Below, piece by piece: positions 1-8,331 of a DNA stretch of 8,331 nt. The position numbers were made by a program, and so were the translations under genes. The DNA comes from a virus. Taxonomy: Duplodnaviria > Heunggongvirae > Uroviricota > Caudoviricetes. The DNA lies in the IMG/VR virus record IMGVR_UViG_2603880147_000004. The stretch is one strand, 5' to 3'. Each line of letters starts with the position of its first letter. Within the stretch, counting starts at the first letter, position 1. The notes below the pieces were generated by a model. That model was not told the origin of the DNA and did not search any database. It worked only from the letters and a program-made list of their open reading frames with translations.

Positions 1-309
1 AGTGAAACCCGGTATGGATGTGGCTTCGGCCCCTTCCGTAAGAAAGTGCGCTTTGGTGATGGCTATTCCCAGCGAGCGCCTGCCGGGCTGAATGCCGACC
101 TGAAAACGTACAGCGTGACGCTTTCTGTTCCCCGTTGGGAGGCCACGGCGCTGGAGTCGTTTCTGGCTGAGCACGGGGGCTGGAAAGCCTTTCTGTGGAC
201 GCCGCCTTATGAGTGGCGGCAGATAAAGGTGACCTGCGCAAAATGGTCGTCGCGGGTCAGTATGCTGCGTGTTGAGTTCAGCGCAGAGTTTGAACAGGTG
301 GTGAACTGA
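1..309 (+). CDS. M: Tail tip protein M, 3' portion (5' end lies upstream of the window); reading frame appears to shift at an A-run near 40-45
   Basis: Frame 1 from 46 to stop TGA 307-309 translates to VRFGDGYSQRAPAGLNADLKTYSVTLSVPRWEATALESFLAEHGGWKAFLWTPPYEWRQIKVTCAKWSSRVSMLRVEFSAEFEQVVN, matching my recollection of the lambda gpM C-terminus. Bases 2-45 match gpM only in frame 2 (VKPGMDVASAPSVRK). Stop overlaps the L start (TGATG). Confidence 0.8.
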   Translation, partial: SETRYGCGFGPFRKKVRFGDGYSQRAPAGLNADLKTYSVTLSVPRWEATALESFLAEHGGWKAFLWTPPYEWRQIKVTCAKWSSRVSMLRVEFSAEFEQVVN

Positions 310-1007
310 TGCAGGATATCCGGCAGGAAACACTGAATGAATGCACCCGTGCGGAGCAGTCGGCCAGCGTGGTGCTCTGGGAAATCGATCTGACAGAGGT
401 CGGTGGAGAACGTTATTTTTTCTGTAATGAGCAGAACGAAAAAGGTGAGCCGGTCACCTGGCAGGGGCGACAGTATCAGCCGTATCCCATTCAGGGGAGT
501 GGTTTTGAACTGAATGGCAAAGGCACCAGTACGCGCCCCACGCTGACGGTTTCTAACCTGTACGGTATGGTCACCGGGATGGCGGAAGATCTGCAGAGTC
601 TGGTCGGCGGAACGGTGGTCCGGCGTAAGGTTTACGCCCGTTTTCTGGATGCGGTGAACTTCGTCAACGGAAACAGCGAAGCCGATCCGGAGCAGGAGGT
701 GATCAGCCGCTGGCGCATCGAGCAGTGCAGCGAACTGAGCGCGGTCAGTGTCTCTTTTGTACTGTCCACACCGACTGAAACGGATGGCTCTGTTTTTCCG
801 GGGCGTATCATGCTGGCCAACACCTGCACCTGGACCTATCGCGGCGATGAGTGCGGTTATAGCGGTCCGGCGGTCGCGGATGAATATGACCAGCCGACGT
901 CCGATATCACGAAGGATAAATGCAGCAAATGCCTGAGCGGCTGTAAGTTTCGCAATAACGTCGGCAACTTTGGCGGCTTCCTTTCCATTAACAAACTTTC
1001 GCAGTAA
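309..1007 (+). CDS. L: Tail tip assembly protein L (lambda gpL family)
   Basis: Intact 232-aa ORF, the same length as lambda gpL. ATG at 309 overlaps the M stop; SD-like AGGTGG at 296-301. Protein MQDIRQETLNECTRAEQSASVVLWEIDL...CSKCLSGCKFRNNVGNFGGFLSINKLSQ with a C-terminal cysteine cluster, consistent with the Fe-S cluster reported for gpL. Confidence 0.93.
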   Translation: MQDIRQETLNECTRAEQSASVVLWEIDLTEVGGERYFFCNEQNEKGEPVTWQGRQYQPYPIQGSGFELNGKGTSTRPTLTVSNLYGMVTGMAEDLQSLVGGTVVRRKVYARFLDAVNFVNGNSEADPEQEVISRWRIEQCSELSAVSVSFVLSTPTETDGSVFPGRIMLANTCTWTYRGDECGYSGPAVADEYDQPTSDITKDKCSKCLSGCKFRNNVGNFGGFLSINKLSQ

Positions 1008-1011
1008 TCCC

Positions 1012-1755
1012 ATGACACAGACAGAATCAGCGATTCTGGCGCACGCCCGGCGATGTGCGCCAGCGGAGTCGTGCGGCTTCGTGGTGAGAGCGCCGGAGGG
1101 GGAAAGATATTTTCCCTGCGTGAATATCTCCGGTGAGCCGGAGGCGTATTTCCGTATGTCGCCGGAAGACTGGCTGCAGGCAGAAATGCAGGGTGAGATT
1201 GTGGCGCTGGTCCACAGCCACCCCGGTGGTCTGCCCTGGCTGAGTGAGGCCGACAGGCGGCTGCAGGTGCAGAGTGATTTGCCGTGGTGGCTGGTCTGCC
1301 GGGGAGTGATTCATAAGTTCCGCTGTGTGCCGCATCTCACCGGGCGGCGTTTTGAGCACGGGGTGACAGACTGTTATACGCTGTTCCGCGATGCCTATCA
1401 TCTGGCGGGGATTGAGATGCCGGATTTTCATCGCGGGGATGACTGGTGGCGTCACGGTCAGAATCTCTATCTGGATAATCTGGAGGCCACAGGGCTGTAT
1501 CAGGTGCCGTTGTCAGCGGCACAGCCGGGCGATGTTCTGCTGTGCTGTTTTGGTTCATCGGTGCCGAATCACGCCGCCATTTACTGCGGCGACGGCGAGC
1601 TGCTGCACCATATTCCTGAACAACTGAGCAAACGAGAGAGGTATACCGACAAATGGCAGCGACGCACACACTCCCTCTGGCGTCACCAGGCATGGCACGC
1701 ATCTGCCTTTACGGGGATTTACAACGATTTGGCCGCCGCATCGACCTGCGTGTGA
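1012..1755 (+). CDS. K: Tail tip assembly protein K (lambda gpK family), two-domain JAMM/MPN + NlpC/P60
   Basis: Intact ORF. ATG at 1012 lies 4 nt after the L stop (MTQTESAILAHARRCAPAESCGFVV...). JAMM-type motif HSHPGGLPWLSEAD (HxH-x7-S-x2-D) with an upstream Glu (PAESCGF). NlpC/P60-like Cys (GVTDCYTLF) and His (NHAAIYCGDGELLHH) follow. Start is uncertain: the track offers TTG 970 inside L, and the classical lambda annotation uses the internal ATG at 1156. Confidence 0.88.
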   Translation: MTQTESAILAHARRCAPAESCGFVVRAPEGERYFPCVNISGEPEAYFRMSPEDWLQAEMQGEIVALVHSHPGGLPWLSEADRRLQVQSDLPWWLVCRGVIHKFRCVPHLTGRRFEHGVTDCYTLFRDAYHLAGIEMPDFHRGDDWWRHGQNLYLDNLEATGLYQVPLSAAQPGDVLLCCFGSSVPNHAAIYCGDGELLHHIPEQLSKRERYTDKWQRRTHSLWRHQAWHASAFTGIYNDLAAASTCV

Positions 1756-2324
1756 AAACGGGGGCCGAAGCCATCCGCGCACTGGCCACACAGCTCCCGG
1801 CGTTTCGTCAGAAACTGAGCGACGGCTGGTATCAGGTACGGATTGCCGGGCGGGACGTCAGCACGTCCGGGTTAACGGCGTAGTTACATGAGACTCTGCC
1901 TGACGGCGCTGTGATTCATATTGTTCCCAGAGTCGCCGGGGCCAAGTCAGGGGGCGTATTCCAGATTGTTCTGGGGGCTGCCGCCATTGCCGGATCATTC
2001 TTTACTGCCGGAGCCACTCTTGCAGCATGGGGGGCAGCCATTGGGGCCGGTGGTATGACCGGTATCCTGTTTTCTCTCGGTGCCAGTATGGTACTTGGTG
2101 GTGTGGCGCAGATGCTGGCACCGAAAGCCAGGACGCCCACGGCAGCAAGTACAGATAACGGCAAACAGAACACCTATTTCTCCTCACTGGATAACATGGT
2201 TGCCCAGGGCAATGTTCTGCCCGTTCTGTACGGTGAAATGCGCGTGGGGTCGCGGGTGGTCTCTCAGGAGATCAGCACGGCAGACGAAGGGGATGGTGGT
2301 CAGGTTGTGGTGATTGGTCGCTGA
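1653..2324 (+). pseudogene. I: Tail tip assembly protein I (lambda gpI family), interrupted by an in-frame TAG at 1881-1883
   Basis: ATG at 1653 overlaps the K 3' end by 103 nt in another frame, as in lambda. The frame is open for 76 codons (MAATHTLPLASPGMARICLYGDLQRFGRRIDLRVKTGAEAIRALATQLPAFRQKLSDGWYQVRIAGRDVSTSGLTA), then TAG, then the same frame continues with no further stop to TGA 2322-2324 (LHETLPDGAVIHIVPRVAGAKSGGVFQIVLGAAAIAGSFF...GGQVVVIGR). Total length 672 bp equals a 223-aa gpI plus stop. In lambda the position is Gln (CAG) as I recall. Confidence 0.85.
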
Positions 2325-2342
2325 TGAAAAACATTTTATGTG

Positions 2343-2370
2343 AAACCGCCTCCGGGCGGTTTTATCGTTT
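2343..2370 (+). terminator. GC-rich hairpin followed by a T-rich tract in the I-J intergenic spacer (terminator-like or RNA processing/stability element)
   Basis: AAACCGCC (2343-2350), loop TCCG, GGCGGTTT (2355-2362), then TTTTATCGTTT. Sits between the I stop (2324) and the J start (2385). Confidence 0.4.
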
Positions 2371-2384
2371 ATGGAGCATGACGA

Positions 2385-5300
2385 ATGGGTAAAGGCAGCA
2401 GTAAGGGGCATACCCCGCGCGAAGCGAAGGACAACCTGAAATCACCCAGATGCTGAGCGTGATAGACGCCATCAGCGAAGGGCCGATTGAAGGTCCGGTG
2501 GACGGATTAAAAAGCGTGCTGCTGAACAGTACGCCGGTGCTGGACAGTGAGGGGAATACCAATATCTCCGGCGTCACGGTGGTGTTCCGGGCAGGTGAGC
2601 AGGAGCAGACACCGCCGGAGGGATTTGAATCCTCCGGCTCCGAGACGGTGCTGGGTACGGAAGTGAAATACGACACGCCGATTACCCGGACCATCACGTC
2701 GGCAAACATCGACCGTCTGCGCTTTACCTTCGGTGTGCAGGCACTGGTGGAAACCACCTCAAAGGGGGACCGGAATCCGTCGGAAGTCCGCCTGCTGGTT
2801 CAGATACAGCGTAACGGTGGCTGGGTGACGGAAAAAGACATCACCATTAAAGGCAAAACCACCTCACAGTATCTGGCATCGGTGGTGGTGGATAACCTGC
2901 CGCCGCGCCCGTTCAATATCCGGATGCGCAGGATGACGCCGGACAGCACCACAGACCAGCTGCAGAACAAAACGCTCTGGTCGTCATACACCGAAATCAT
3001 CGATGTGAAACAGTGCTACCCGAACACGGCACTGGTCGGCGTACAGGTGGATTCGGAGCAGTTCGGCAGCCAGCAGGTGAGCCGTAATTATCATCTGCGC
3101 GGGCGTATTCTGCAGGTGCCGTCGAACTATAACCCGCAGACGCGGCAATACAGCGGTATCTGGGACGGAACGTTTAAACCAGCATACAGCAACAACATGG
3201 CCTGGTGTCTGTGGGATATGCTGACCCACCCACGCTACGGCATGGGGAAACGTCTTGGTGCGGCAGATGTGGACAAATGGGCGCTGTATGTCATCGGCCA
3301 GAACTGCGACCAGTCAGTGCCGGACAGCTTTGGCGGCACGGAGCCGCGCATCACCTGTAATGCGTACCTGACCACACAACGCAAGGCCTGGGATGTGCTC
3401 AGTGATTTCTGCTCGGCGATGCGCTGTATGCCGGTATGGAACGGGCAGACGCTGACGTTCGTGCAGGACCGACCGTCGGATAAGGTGTGGACCTATAACC
3501 GCAGTAATGTGGTGATGCCGGATGATGGCGCGCCGTTCCGCTACAGCTTCAGCGCCCTGAAGGACCGCCATAATGCCGTTGAGGTGAACTGGATTGACCC
3601 GAACAACGGCTGGGAGACGGCGACAGAGCTTGTTGAAGATACGCAGGCCATTGCCCGTTACGGTCGTAATGTCACGAAGATGGATGCCTTTGGCTGTACC
3701 AGTCGGGGGCAGGCACACCGCGCCGGGCTGTGGCTGATTAAAACGGAACTGCTGGAAACGCAGACCGTGGACTTCAGCGTGGGTGCTGAAGGGCTTCGCC
3801 ATGTACCGGGCGATGTCATTGAAATCTGCGATGATGACTATGCCGGTATCAGCATCGGCGGGCGCGTGCTGGCGGTGAACAGCCAGACCCGGACGCTGAC
3901 GCTCGACCGTGAAATCACGCTGCTATCCTCCGGTACTACGCTGATAAGCCTGGTTGACGGAAGTGGCAATCCGGTCAGCGTGGAGGTCCAGTCCGTCACC
4001 GACGGCGTGAAGGTAAAAGTGAGCCGTGTTCCTGACGGCGTTGCAGAATACAGCGTGTGGGGGCTGAAGTTGCCGACGTTGCGCCAGCGCCTGTTCCGCT
4101 GTGTGAGTATCCGTGAGAACGATGACGGCACGTATGCCATCACCGCCGTGCAGCATGTACCGGAAAAAGAAGCCATCGTGGATAACGGGGCGCACTTTGA
4201 CGGCGACCAGAGCGGCACGGTGAATGGCGTTACGCCGCCAGCGGTGCAGCACCTGACCGCCGAAGTCACCGCAGACAGCGGGGAGTATCAGGTACTGGCC
4301 CGCTGGGACACGCCGAAGGTGGTGAAGGGCGTGAGCTTCCTGCTCCGTCTGACCGTAACAGCGGATGACGGCAGTGAGCGGCTGGTCAGCACGGCCCGGA
4401 CGACGGAAACCACATACCGCTTCAGGCAGCTGGCGCCAGGGAACTACAGGCTGACGGTCCGGGCGGTAAATGCGTGGGGACAGCAGGGCGATCCGGCGTT
4501 GGTATCGTTCCGGATTGCCGCCCCGGCAGCGCCGTCGCGGATTGAGCTGACGTCGGGCTATTTTCAGATAACTGCCACGCCGCATCTTGCGGTTTATGAT
4601 CCGACGGTACAGTTTGAGTTCTGGTTCTCGGAAAAGCGGATTGCGGATATCAGGCAGGTTGAAACCACAGCACGCTATCTTGGCACGGCGCTGTACTGGA
4701 TAGCCGCCAGTATCAATATCAGGCCGGGCCATGATTATTATTTTTACGTTCGCAGTGTGAACACCGTTGGCAAATCGGCATTCGTGGAGGCTGTTGGTCA
4801 GCCGAGTGATGATGCATCCGGCTATCTGGATTTTTTCAAAGGCGAGATAGGGAAAACCCATCTGGCTCAGGAGCTGTGGACGCAGATTGATAACGGTCAG
4901 CTTGCGCCTGACCTGGCTGAAATCAGGACGTCCATTACGGATGTCAGCAATGAAATCACGCAGACCGTCAATAAGAAACTGGAAGACCAGAGTGCGGCAA
5001 TTCAGCAGATACAGAAGGTTCAGGTTGATACAAATAATAACCTGAACAGCATGTGGGCTGTGAAGCTGCAGCAGATGCAGGACGGACGCCTTTATATCGC
5101 GGGTATTGGTGTCGGTATTGAGAACACCCCTGACGGCATGCAGAGTCAGGTGCTGCTGGCGGCGGACAGGATTGCGATGGTTAATCCTGCGAATGGCAAC
5201 ACAAAACCGATGTTTGTTGGTCAGGGCGATCAGATATTCATGAACGACGTGTTCCTGAAACGCCTGACGGCCCCCACCATTACCAGCGGTGGAAATCCAC

Positions 5301-5863
5301 CGGCATTTTCCCTGACACCGGACGGAAAGCTGACTGCTAAAAATGCGGATATCAGTGGCAGTGTGAATGCGAACTCCGGGACGCTCAACAACGTCACGAT
5401 TAATGAGAACTGTCAGATTAAGGGGAAACTGTCAGCCAATCAGATTGAAGGCGATATTGTCAAAACAGTGGGTAAGGCTTTCCCGCGGGACTCCCGGGCA
5501 CCGGAGCGGTGGCCATCAGGGACCATTACCGTCAGGATTTATGACGATCAGCCTTTTGACAGGCAAATTGTTATTCCAGCGGTGGCATTCTGCGGCGCTA
5601 AACATGAGCGGGAGAATAACGATATTTATTCGTCATGCCGCCTGATAGTGAAGAAAAATGGTGCTGAAATTTATAACCGTACCGCGCTGGATAATACGCT
5701 GATTTACAGTGGTGTTATTGATATGCCAGCTGGTCACGGCCACATGACGCTGGAGTTTTCGGTGTCAGCATGGCTGGTAAATGACTGGTATCCCACAGCA
5801 AGTATCAGCGATTTGCTGGTTGTGGTGATGAAGAAAGCCACCGCTGGCATCAGTATCAGCTGA
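2385..5863 (+). pseudogene. J: Tip attachment / host specificity protein J (central tail fibre), with a frameshift about 20 codons from the start; the long open frame is 2450-5863
   Basis: ATG at 2385 with GGAG at 2373-2376 encodes [20 protein letters not shown], the gpJ N-terminus as I recall it, and hits TGA at 2454-2456 after about 22 codons. The 1137-codon ORF 2450-5863 is in another frame, begins [32 protein letters not shown] (lambda gpJ residues about 23 onward) and has no SD before its ATG. This implies a net 1-bp deletion near 2440-2448. The rest is gpJ-like to about 4840, then divergent. Confidence 0.88.
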
Positions 5864-5881
5864 ATTTTATAACCCATATAC

Positions 5882-5909
5882 GGGCGCCAGAAATGGCGCC
5901 TTTTTTATT
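5882..5909 (+). terminator. Rho-independent terminator downstream of J
   Basis: Perfect palindromic stem GGCGCC (5883-5888), loop AGAAAT, GGCGCC (5895-5900), then TTTTTTATT, 19 nt after the J stop. Confidence 0.75.
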
Positions 5910-5930
5910 GCAGAAAAGCGAGAGGTAATT

Positions 5931-6530
5931 ATGCGTAAAGTTTGTGCAGCCATTTTGTCCGCAGCCATCTGTCTGGCCGTATCCGGTGCGCCTGCATGGG
6001 CGTCTGAGCAGCAGGCCACACTGAGCGCAGGGTATCTTCATGCCCGTACGAACGCTCCCGGCAGCGATAATCTGAACGGGATTAACGTGAAATACCGTTA
6101 TGAGTTTACGGACACGCTGGGGCTGATTACGTCATTCAGTTATGCCAACGCTGAAGATGAGCAAAAAACGCATTACAGCGATACCCGCTGGTATGAAGAT
6201 TCCGTGCGTAACCGCTGGTTCAGCGTGATGGCGGGGCCGTCTGTGCGCGTGAATGAATGGTTCAGCGCGTATGCGATGGTGGGTGTGGCTTACAGCCGTG
6301 TGTCGACTTTCTCCGGGAATTATCTGCAGGTGACCGACAATACGGGGAAAACGCACGATGTGCTGACCGGAAGTGATGACGGTCGCCACAGCAACACGTC
6401 TCTGGCGTGGGGGGCTGGCGTGCAGTTTAACCCGACCGAATCCGTGGCCGTTGATGTCGCTTATGAAGGCTCCGGCAGCGGTGACTGGCGTACCAACAGT
6501 TTCATCGTTGGTGTCGGTTATAAATTCTGA
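5931..6530 (+). CDS. lom: Lom-like outer membrane protein (Ail/Lom/PagC/OmpX 8-strand beta-barrel family), prophage moron
   Basis: 199-aa ORF with SD GAGAGG at 5920-5925 five nt before the ATG. Signal peptide [24 protein letters not shown] then SEQQ. C-terminus [22 protein letters not shown] ends in the aromatic residue typical of OMP barrels and closely matches the lambda Lom C-terminus as I recall it. Internal [12 protein letters not shown] and SVMAGP motifs are also shared. It sits between J and stf as in lambda. Confidence 0.9.
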
Positions 6531-6556
6531 TTAGCCAGGTAACACAGTGTTATGAC

Positions 6557-6583
6557 AGCCCGCCGGTTCAGGCGGGCTTTTTT
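6557..6583 (+). terminator. Rho-independent terminator downstream of lom
   Basis: Stem AGCCCGCC (6557-6564), loop GGTTCA, GGCGGGCT (6571-6578), then TTTTTTGTGG, 27 nt after the lom stop. Confidence 0.75.
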
Positions 6584-6594
6584 GTGGGGGGAAT

Positions 6595-8331
6595 ATGGCA
6601 GTACGGATTTCAGGTGTACTGAAAGATGGCGCAGGTAAGCCGATACAAAACTGCACCATTCAGCTAAAGGCCAGGCGCAACAGCACCACGGTGGTGGTGA
6701 ACACAGTGGCCTCAGAAAACCCGGATGAAGCCGGGCGTTACACAATGGACGTCGAGTATGGTCAGTACAGCGTCAGTCTGTTGGTGGAGGGATTCCCGCC
6801 GTCACACGCCGGGATTATCACCGTATATGAGGACTCAAAGCCGGGCACACTGAATGATTTCCTCGGTGCAATGACGGAGGATGATGTCCGGCCAGAGGCA
6901 CTGCGCCGTTTTGAACTGATGGTGGAAGAGGTGGCGCGTAACGCGTCCGCAGTGGCACAGAACACGGCAGCCGCGAAGAAGTCAGCCAGCGATGCCCGCA
7001 CCTCAGCCCGGGATGCGGCGGCCTCAAAAGAGGCAGCGAAATCATCAGAAACGAACGCATCATCAAGCGCCAGTAGTGCCGCTTCCTCGGCAACGGCGGC
7101 AGGAAATTCCGCGAAGGCGGCAAAGACGTCCGAGACGAACGCCAGGTCTTCTGAAACGGCAGCGGGACAGAGTGCCTCAGCTGCGGCAGGCTCAAAAACA
7201 GCGGCTGCATCATCAGCCAGTGCCGCGTCAACAAGTGCCGGGCAGGCCTCAGCCAGTGCCACCGCTGCCGGAAAGTCGGCAGAAAGTGCTGCATCGTCTG
7301 CTTCAACAGCCACAACGAATGCTGGCGAAGCCGCTGTACAGGCCAGCGCAGCAGCGAGGTCAGCTTCCGCAGCGAAGACATCCGAAACGAACGCGAAAGC
7401 GTCGGAAACCAGCGCAGAATCCTCAAAAACGGCTGCCGCATCGTCCGCCAGTTCGGCGGCGTCATCGGCATCATCTGCGTCTGCTTCAAAAGATGAGGCG
7501 ACCAGACAGGCGTCAGCAGCGAGGGGCAGCGCCACGACGGCATCCACGAAGGCGACAGAGGCTGCTGGCAGTGCGGCAGCGGCAGCACAGAGCAAAAGTA
7601 CGGCAGAATCCGCAGCAACGCGCGCTGAGACAGCGGCAAAACGTGCAGAGGATATTGCATCCGCCGTGGCGCTTGAGGATGCGAGCACGACGAAAAAGGG
7701 GGTAGTACAGCTCAGCAGTGCGACCAACAGCACTTCCGAGTCACAGGCGGCAACGCCAAAAGCCGTTAAGGCCGCGTATGACCTGGCTAACGGGAAATAC
7801 ACCGCACAGGATGCAACGACAGGACAGAAAGGGATAGTTCAGCTCAGCAGTGCGACTAACAGCACTTCCGAGTCACAGGCGGCAACGCCAAAAGCCGTTA
7901 AGGCCGCGTATGACCTGGCTAACGGGAAATACACCGCACAGGATGCAACGACAGGACAGAAAGGGATAGTTCAGCTCAGCAGTGCGACTAACAGCACTTC
8001 CGAGTCACAGGCGGCAACGCCAAAAGCCGTTAAGGCCGCGTATGACCTGGCTAACGGGAAATACACCGCACAGGACGCTACGACAGCACAAAAAGGAATT
8101 GTCCAGCTCAGTAGTGCAACCAACAGCACATCTGAAACGCTTGCTGCGACACCGAAAGCAGTGAAAGCAGCTAATGACAATGCGAATGGTCGGGTACCTT
8201 CTGCCCGTAAGGTGAATGGTAAGGCGCTTTCAGCGGATATAACACTGACGCCGAAAGATATCGGTACGCTTAACTCAACAACAATGTCATTCAGCGGTGG
8301 TGCTGGTTGGTTCAAATTAGCAACGGTAACC
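6595..8331 (+). CDS. stf: Side tail fibre protein Stf, 5' partial (open to the window end, 579 codons, no stop)
   Basis: I translated frame 1 by hand from ATG 6595 to 8331 and found no stop. The ORF track omits it, presumably because it has no stop in the window. N-terminus MAVRISGVLKDGAGKPIQNCTIQLKARRNSTTVVVNTVASENPDEAGRYTMDVEYGQYSVSLLVEGFPPSHAGIITVYEDSKPGTLNDFL resembles lambda Stf as I recall it. An Ala/Ser/Thr-rich low-complexity region follows, then repeated KGIVQLSSATNSTSE..AATPKAVK tail-fibre motifs. G-rich SD-like run at 6585-6590. Confidence 0.9.
   Translation, partial: MAVRISGVLKDGAGKPIQNCTIQLKARRNSTTVVVNTVASENPDEAGRYTMDVEYGQYSVSLLVEGFPPSHAGIITVYEDSKPGTLNDFLGAMTEDDVRPEALRRFELMVEEVARNASAVAQNTAAAKKSASDARTSARDAAASKEAAKSSETNASSSASSAASSATAAGNSAKAAKTSETNARSSETAAGQSASAAAGSKTAAASSASAASTSAGQASASATAAGKSAESAASSASTATTNAGEAAVQASAAARSASAAKTSETNAKASETSAESSKTAAASSASSAASSASSASASKDEATRQASAARGSATTASTKATEAAGSAAAAAQSKSTAESAATRAETAAKRAEDIASAVALEDASTTKKGVVQLSSATNSTSESQAATPKAVKAAYDLANGKYTAQDATTGQKGIVQLSSATNSTSESQAATPKAVKAAYDLANGKYTAQDATTGQKGIVQLSSATNSTSESQAATPKAVKAAYDLANGKYTAQDATTAQKGIVQLSSATNSTSETLAATPKAVKAANDNANGRVPSARKVNGKALSADITLTPKDIGTLNSTTMSFSGGAGWFKLATVT
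7699..8193 (+). repeat. In-frame tandem repeat inside stf: three 132-bp (44-codon) units plus a degenerate partial fourth
   Basis: Units 7699-7830, 7831-7962 and 7963-8094 are almost identical at the nucleotide level. Units 2 and 3 differ only in their last ~24 nt; unit 1 differs at a few positions near its 5' end. Each encodes G(V/I)VQLSSATNSTSESQAATPKAVKAAYDLANGKYTAQDATT(G/A)QK. A diverged copy follows at 8095 to about 8193 (GIVQLSSATNSTSETLAATPKAVKAANDNANGR). Confidence 0.9.

Follow-up and report, generated by a model that had tools for sequence, protein, structure and literature searches.

The stretch of DNA analysed here (the window, 8,331 bp) is the entire draft contig JNRO01000056.1 of assembly GCA_000704685.1, and its tail genes lie in the order M (partial)-L-K-I-J-lom-stf. 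J occupies 2385/2450-5863, upstream of stf, and lom (5931-6530) directly precedes stf among the tail genes of the window. The 5' part of stf, the gene for a lambda-type side tail fibre, is found on the plus strand at 6595..8331, where 579 codons can be read from the ATG at 6595 before the gene runs off the contig end. A Pfam search of this 579-aa partial protein identified the N-terminal domain PF08400 at aa 1-134 (239.8 bits), and a phmmer comparison aligned aa 1-94, over their full length, with the solved structure of the collar domain at the N-terminus of lambda Stf (9e7m chain Ta; E 1.5e-49). Judged from these matches, the collar domain is of the type that attaches to the tail tip, as is characteristic of the N-terminus of a lambda-type Stf. 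The same two matches, together with the tail-gene order, place the tandem repeat array described below in a phage tail fibre protein, and an earlier note on this DNA had correctly located it inside the side tail fibre gene.

Among finished genomes, that of E. coli 1297KP is the closest (98.8% over the whole window); in it, stf is followed by tfaQ and pinQ and the module adjoins ydfK/ynfT/ydfJ. Because of this position next to ydfK/ynfT/ydfJ, and the presence of tfaQ and pinQ, the window can be assigned to a Qin-like lambdoid prophage of E. coli. Near-identical relatives of the window allele encode an Stf of 888 aa, annotated as 'prophage tail fiber N-terminal domain-containing protein', with tfaQ and pinQ as the next genes. 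These 888-aa proteins carry distal Collar (PF07484) and Phage_fiber (PF03335) domains, the distal part of stf being beyond the window end, and the complete product of the window allele would be 932 aa long. A 191-aa Caudo_TAP/TfaQ gene is located 3' of stf in nine near-identical relatives; the window contig stops before tfa.

The shaft of the fibre begins with an Ala/Ser-rich low-complexity segment (6997..7698, plus strand), the counterpart of the 'proximal coiled coil' of Ur-lambda Stf in the scheme of PMC12617516. This segment is 98 aa (14 heptads) shorter than in O26 or K-12 StfR-type alleles, with the junction at about 7009, and the difference takes the form of a 294-bp in-frame gap, common to the window and the 1297KP lineage, with a short direct repeat at its flanks. 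Minus-strand open reading frames over the Ala-rich region, at 6762-7802 and 6818-7660, were rejected as by-products of GCN-rich coding and have no Pfam match. A search of the whole window against Rfam returned no family, and the window contains no Chi sites and so offers no evidence for Chi-stimulated recombination.

The integrity of the prophage also needs to be considered. Compared with 1297KP, three homopolymers are contracted by 1 nt, at positions 45, 1005 and 2442; the contraction at about 45 breaks M, that at 2442 breaks J after codon 21, and that at 1005 falls harmlessly between L and K. In addition, an amber codon in I at 1881-1883 is common to the window and 1297KP. Either the contig is of imperfect sequence quality, or the prophage is defective and unable to build tails, so that the fibre is not made. 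Were the prophage defective, fibre length would have no phenotype in this strain.

Downstream of the Ala-rich segment, Tandem Repeats Finder reports an array at 7699-8129 with a period of 132, 3.3 copies, 95% matches, no indels and a score of 771. The first unit, U1 (the 'A' type; 7699..7830, plus strand), consists of 44 codons comprising a PF03406 core and the linker YDLANGKYTAQDATTGQK, and is identical to unit 1 of 1297KP at 132/132 positions. The second, U2 (7831..7962, plus strand), is an extra hybrid unit with a U3-type 5' end and a U1-type 3' end. The third, U3 (the 'B' type; 7963..8094, plus strand), is 132/132 identical to both unit 2 of 1297KP and unit 3 of AR_0081. By direct comparison U1 and U2 agree at 129/132 positions, U2 and U3 at 128/132 and U1 and U3 at 125/132, far beyond chance. 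Each of the three is in frame and encodes 44 aa of the form G(V/I)VQLSSATNSTSESQAATPKAVKAAYDLANGKYTAQDATT(G/A)QK, such that the 132-bp unit corresponds to a conserved core of 28 residues (GIVQLSSATNSTSE..AATPKAVKAA) followed by a linker of 16 residues. The register of the repeat continues for about 23 nt ahead of U1, back to 7676, where 'EDASTTKK' parallels 'QDATTGQK'.

The fourth unit, U4 (8095..8226, plus strand), is of a different kind. Its core at 8095-8178, GIVQLSSATNSTSETLAATPKAVKAA, is joined to an unrelated tail, and overall it is identical to U1-U3 at only 73-76/132 positions. Within the first 84 nt, however, 61/84 positions are identical to U1-U3, and 19-20 of the 23 differences fall at third codon positions, leaving 3-4 amino-acid changes; the last 48 nt are unrelated to U1-U3, and a mosaic junction is found at about 8183. 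Since the core differences are mostly synonymous and the last 48 nt unrelated, U4 is an old paralogue of the other units, complete over the 28-residue core but ending in a different tail, and not a decayed partial copy of a recent expansion. Strong purifying selection acts on its core at the level of the protein, and it has escaped homogenisation with its neighbours. The earlier note had described three near-identical, in-frame 132-bp units at 7699-8094 followed by a diverged partial copy; the three units and the divergence of the fourth are borne out by the comparisons above, but the word partial has to be dropped, as the 28-residue core of U4 is complete and only its tail is unrelated.

The units belong to a known family. 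PF03406 ('Phage tail fibre repeat', Phage_fiber_2) matches four stretches of the window Stf with 242 bits against a curated gathering cut-off of 22 (E 2.3e-73), the best of them being aa 408-448, which covers profile positions 1-41 of 42. U1-U4 can therefore all be classed by sequence as PF03406 repeats, and the Pfam search for tail-fibre repeat domains that had been suggested earlier thus gives four copies of a single family. One 44-residue unit used as a query found 1272 representative proteins (50%-identity clusters) with an E value of 0.001 or lower; a single protein can hold as many as 12 stretches that are near-identical (85% identity), or as many as 17 that are diverged. As such, a three-plus-one array is unremarkable for PF03406, a curated repeat that commonly occurs in arrays. 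Knowledge of the repeat family, of its occurrence in the fibres of lambda, Mu and P2 and of the mosaic way in which these genes evolve dates back to the early 1990s, according to the works cited as refs 72-74 in PMC3945230. Pf2 was later listed as a domain of EPclB and of lambda Stf, and its structure and function were described in 2012 as little known (Ghosh et al., 2012; PMC3368898). An AlphaFold2 monomer of aa 355-579, built from a 26-sequence alignment, was unusable (mean pLDDT 32, pTM 0.23); its one hint, that in each unit GIVQL forms a short strand and TPKAVKAAYDLA a helix, is not relied on here.

The origin of the array is best approached through alleles that are otherwise the same. Between the stf genes of the window and 1297KP there is no difference in the 1104 nt before the array or in the 237 nt after it; U2 is all that sets them apart. 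Eight further assemblies with an identical Lom protein carry the same 888-aa allele, consisting of a U1-type unit, a U3-type unit and U4, and follow the U1-type/U3-type pattern at nine variable sites. U2 is thus absent from all nine near-identical alleles (1297KP and the eight assemblies), which show 0/1104 differences upstream; over the 237 nt downstream, eight have none and one has a single difference. The window is the sole carrier of the extra unit among these ten. As alleles with identical or nearly identical flanks lack U2, the change in copy number would be younger than any substitution in the gene. Only U2 is recent; the U1/U3 pair is older and also occurs in O26 prophages.

The composition of U2 points to how it arose. 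U1 and U3 differ at seven sites. At sites 3, 8 and 26 U2 has the base of U3, at sites 113, 116, 124 and 128 that of U1, and it has no private substitution; between unit sites 26 and 113, 86 nt are identical in U1 and U3. Furthermore, WCHEC025985 carries a single unit with A-type 5' sites and B-type 3' sites, which is the reciprocal product. With a chimeric unit, a known reciprocal product and a copy number that differs in whole units, the array has the hallmarks of a variable-number tandem repeat (VNTR) as far as sequence can tell. A hybrid of this kind is what a single unequal crossover, or a slip in replication, should yield in an A-B ancestor, and the pattern of sites strongly supports such an origin for U2. 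The immediate ancestor would have possessed two units (A and B) followed by the old paralogous core (U4). A single unequal homologous crossover or a replication slip between B and A, at a point within the 86 identical nt between unit sites 26 and 113, would have inserted a hybrid unit (H) with the 5' end of B and the 3' end of A, giving A-H-B-U4 and lengthening each chain by 44 residues. Events of this kind go in both directions and recur in other lineages, and related prophages carry 2 to 5 repeats as a result.

Copy-number differences of this kind are indeed found among E. coli prophages. The number of PF03406 repeats is one in K-12 StfR, two in WCHEC025985, three in 1297KP, O26 and O157, four in AR_0081, NCTC9088, H10 and HH35, and five in ST95-32. 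AR_0081 and NCTC9088 carry an A*-H*-B array in which the hybrid has their own unit-1 variant at site 124, which suggests a separate event or a later conversion; H10 shows the same A-H-B arrangement with a few extra substitutions. A second lineage runs from three repeats in O157 E32511 to four in HH35 and five in ST95-32, where units 3 and 4 are 132/132 identical. The ST95-32 allele was obtained with a synthetic eight-unit BLAST query, for which coverage is uninformative about copy number as a genomic unit can be re-used. Taken together, the hybrids, the reciprocal product and the lineage with three, four and five repeats indicate that whole-unit gain and loss is recurrent among E. coli prophages.

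The frequency of the different array lengths was gauged in finished sequences. A query of positions 7400-8331 (932 nt) matched 3824 of 5426 complete E. coli genomes. Among the best 60 of these 3824, four span 932 nt and have the same copy number as the window; the other 56, at 800 nt, are one unit shorter. In 60 records sampled at even intervals the whole query is covered over 932 nt in 2 and over 800 nt in 15, whereas 2 have a span of 668 or 648 nt, 9 match only to query position 784, within 520 nt, and the remainder share only the sequence up to the first core; the match lengths correspond to four, three and two repeats. From these spans it follows that three repeats are common in the allele family, four are a minority and five are rare. 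A literature search for copy-number polymorphism of stf found no paper describing it.

Two predictions of the earlier note bear on these results. It had read the near-identity of the units as a recent expansion by slipped or unequal recombination, which agrees with the nine alleles that lack U2 and with a chimeric U2 free of private bases, and it had anticipated copy-number variation between isolates, for which the comparison of stf alleles across related prophages that it recommended reveals alleles with 2, 3, 4 or 5 PF03406 repeats. The explanation that accounts best for these observations, and that is considered probable, is therefore an in-frame PF03406 array in the Stf shaft of a Qin-like prophage that has grown by a crossover or slip between A and B.

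The main challenge to this explanation concerns the sequence itself. It is possible, although rather unlikely, that the isolate carries the common 888-aa allele (A-B-U4) and that the assembler traversed the repeat cycle once too often, thereby creating U2. The window is a short, whole draft contig that ends inside stf, all nine of the nine near-identical alleles are A-B-U4, and one extra turn of the cycle from the 5' end of B through the common core and the 3' end of A to the junction would give exactly A-H-B with no private base. By our reckoning, a k-mer graph with k below about 88 cannot separate A-B from A-H-B given the 86-nt shared core. Moreover, the contig differs in the length of three homopolymers, a hint that its sequence is imperfect, and a Logan contig of a sister allele stops 57 nt into U1. 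The earlier warning that the repeat could collapse or be misassembled from short reads is thus plausible and relevant to a draft contig such as this one, particularly as the sister contig breaks within U1. Most of the 120 protein matches listed are also labelled 'partial', and many come from contigs of about 1 kb, although those listed are all at most 420 aa and so form a biased sample.

On the other hand, assemblers usually collapse or break at tandem repeats and less often expand them. The A-H-B architecture is also present in the finished chromosomes of AR_0081, NCTC9088 and H10, and the existence of the reciprocal deletion product and of alleles with five repeats implies that real events are frequent. 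Reads of at least 88 nt would directly contradict a false hybrid. That U2 lacks private substitutions does not discriminate between a real event of very recent date and an artefact of assembly. A real crossover or slip between A and B is nevertheless the reading preferred here, and what it would mean for the fibre is considered next.

[quoted passage not shown] The repeat of lambda Stf occupies residues 358-396, and comparison with these limits, which come from a low-resolution, AF3-assisted model (PMC12617516), therefore puts it in the last part of the proximal rod, adjoining the hinge. Each unit would then add a module to the trimeric fibre, by the hinge that joins its proximal coiled coil to the receptor-binding distal half, and gain or loss of a unit would alter fibre length or knee geometry with the reading frame intact. 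On this model the added unit is inferred to lengthen the knee region by 44 residues per chain.

The array also coincides with boundaries in the gene. Homology to K-12 StfR-type alleles stops at window position 7782 and homology to SPF_0923-type alleles at 8183 (query 784), as in many prophage and phage alleles, and both ends lie 84-89 nt into a unit, just past the conserved core. The core thus coincides with mosaic junctions where the distal modules differ, and may also serve as a homology patch for the exchange of distal fibre modules between phages. This coincidence fits the long-standing view of tail-fibre gene exchange for which PMC3945230 cites its refs 72-74.

It could further be proposed that the array is a contingency locus for length tuning, in which diversifying selection acts on copy number through fibre reach or the hinge and thereby on adsorption or host range. 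Copy number is polymorphic and always in frame, strong purifying selection acts on the protein sequence of the core, the lambda model has the repeat directly against the hinge, and the coiled coil varies too, by 98 aa or 14 heptads. However, any 132-bp step is in frame by construction, so that conservation of the frame is uninformative about selection; here I carries an amber codon and M and J apparent frameshifts, and many such prophages are cryptic. Selection of this kind is accordingly regarded as doubtful. A broader version, in which copy number and heptad-multiple coiled-coil indels together would form a fast, reversible, in-frame adjuster of fibre reach and knee while the core doubles as a homology patch for module swaps, is more speculative and best treated as a long shot. 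If it were true, temperate phages would possess a length-contingency locus, selected as the O-antigen or capsule thickness of the host changes.

That the triplication is old, and that gene conversion (concerted evolution) has kept its units alike, is very hard to credit. Tandem repeats within one gene can be homogenised, and the A and B types are stable across lineages with different flanks (O26 11368 and 1297KP). However, the middle unit is absent from nine alleles whose flanks differ at 0/1104 and 0-1/237 positions, U2 divides cleanly into two parts with no patchwork, and the core of U4 differs at 23/84 sites, mostly synonymous, which shows that conversion across the array is not pervasive.

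With growth by crossover or slip as the preferred account, the array is an ordinary member of a known repeat family that behaves as expected, and a feature of an already known kind, but it shows copy-number change unusually cleanly. It provides a tidy natural case of unequal crossover, for which sequenced strains supply the ancestor as well as the products of duplication and of reciprocal deletion. It also illustrates how the shaft of a tail fibre can grow or shrink in frame while swaps of the receptor-binding end take place at the conserved core of the repeat. For annotation, stf alleles are best compared by repeat count, with the proviso that copy number is untrustworthy in draft contigs that end in or near the array. 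Measured against the early 1990s work cited as refs 72-74 in PMC3945230, from which the family and its mosaic evolution have been known, the feature raises no new question.

Among the named fibre systems, lambda Stf (P03764; 9e7m covers residues 1-94) is the natural reference, since its gene follows J and lom as stf does in the window, and both proteins possess a PF08400 collar domain, an Ala-rich coiled-coil shaft and the repeat core GIVQLSSATNSTSETLAATPKAVK. They differ in that lambda Stf has a single PF03406 repeat, with one motif at aa 362 and one match at 358-396, as the earlier note had stated, against four in the window allele. Moreover, the DNA identity between lambda and window cores is only about 63-65/84, and beyond the repeats the distal part of the window's near-identical relatives differs from lambda Stf. 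Far closer are the Stf homologues of E. coli prophages (K-12 StfR/Rac, the Qin-type stf-tfaQ-pinQ modules and O26/O157), with 91-99% DNA identity upstream of and within the array and an identical domain order, including distal Collar (PF07484) and Phage_fiber (PF03335) domains, although K-12 StfR has one PF03406 motif compared with four in the window allele.

The repeat also extends to fibres of other phages. The tail fibre S of Mu (gpS; sequence of PDB 5yvq) has one copy, residues 99-156 aligning to the repeat with E 1.8e-8, while gene H of P2 (gpH) has 82% DNA identity to the window units, and the fibres of P2-like E. coli prophages carry at least five units with the same YDLANGKYTAQDATT linker as the window. 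The PF03406 arrays of Mu gpS, P2 gpH, the P2-like fibres and the collagen-like EPclB of EHEC share with the window a repeat of roughly 40-44 residues; some arrays in other fibres are instead built from a double unit of roughly 94 residues, unlike the 44 of the window. The arrays of these other fibres are furthermore joined to other N-terminal attachment domains, and the virion types differ too, with myovirus baseplate fibres set against siphovirus side fibres such as that of the window.

In the side tail fibre gene stf, DNA homology with the alleles of numerous other prophages and phages ends at positions 7782 and 8183 of the window, in each case 84-89 nt into a unit of the 132-bp repeat array and directly past its conserved core. 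The mosaic junctions that join different distal fibre modules coincide with the repeat cores. Besides the repeat array, the fibre has another part that varies in length, the coiled-coil shaft. Compared with the O26 and K-12 StfR-type alleles of related E. coli prophages, the Ala/Ser-rich shaft carries a 294-bp in-frame deletion (98 aa, or 14 heptads) at about position 7009, near stf codon 139, and this site is flanked by the short direct repeat ACxTCAGCCxGxGAxGCGGC, which codes for TSAR(E/D)AA.

For the K-12 StfR (L006 2902-6264), no PF03406 match was listed by hmmscan at E-values up to 0.01, despite a perfect copy of the repeat core motif, GIVQLSSATNSTSETLAATPKAVK, at aa 467; as this protein is Ala/Ser-rich, the match may have been dropped by the composition-bias filter of HMMER. 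A Logan short-read contig of a sister allele (L022, SRR25913437) extends 1161 nt into stf and ends there, 57 nt inside unit 1, and most of the 120 listed protein matches, a biased sample in that all are 420 aa or fewer, are 'partial' tail fibre proteins, many of them on contigs of about 1 kb. Both the contig end and, within that biased list, the 'partial' proteins are consistent with a repeat that breaks short-read assemblies.

Two long ORFs on the minus strand, of 346 aa (6762-7802) and 280 aa (6818-7660), overlap stf in its Ala-rich part. The source assembly calls one of the two as a gene, and a Pfam search with it returned no match; as genes, both were rejected as most likely by-products of the GCN-rich coding sequence.

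The window corresponds in whole (1-8331) to an E. coli draft contig, JNRO01000056.1 (GCA_000704685.1), whose 5' end lies within tail gene M and whose 3' end lies within stf, 237 nt past the repeat array. Relative to 1297KP, the closest finished E. coli genome, there are 84 differences, about 80 of them within 1-3500 and only three within 3501-7830, and this concentration suggests a recombination boundary within J at about 3500. Relative to 1297KP, the window has three 1-nt homopolymer contractions: GG to G at 45, which frameshifts M; AAA to AA at 1005, a harmless change in the gap separating the stop of L from the start of K; and CCCC to CCC at 2442, which frameshifts J (ATG at 2385) past codon 21 (the ORF list resumes at the ATG at 2450). 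These contractions could be either sequencing errors or prophage decay. Moreover, the tail assembly gene I (about 1752-2326) has an in-frame TAG at 1881-1883 that converts Gln to a stop ('GLTA*LHETLPDG'). This codon is common to the window and 1297KP, whose annotation lists gene I as a pseudogene carrying an internal stop; in other near-identical prophages gene I is intact at 190-210 aa.

Downstream of stf, relatives carry tfaQ and the Pin-type invertase gene pinQ, and in strain WCHEC025985, which has fewer repeats, tfa and the fibre-tip genes are inverted and adjoin a recombinase fragment (relatives' loci L001 15264-16527 and L004 6111-7181). These features are what is left of an invertible host-range segment that lies just past the window end.
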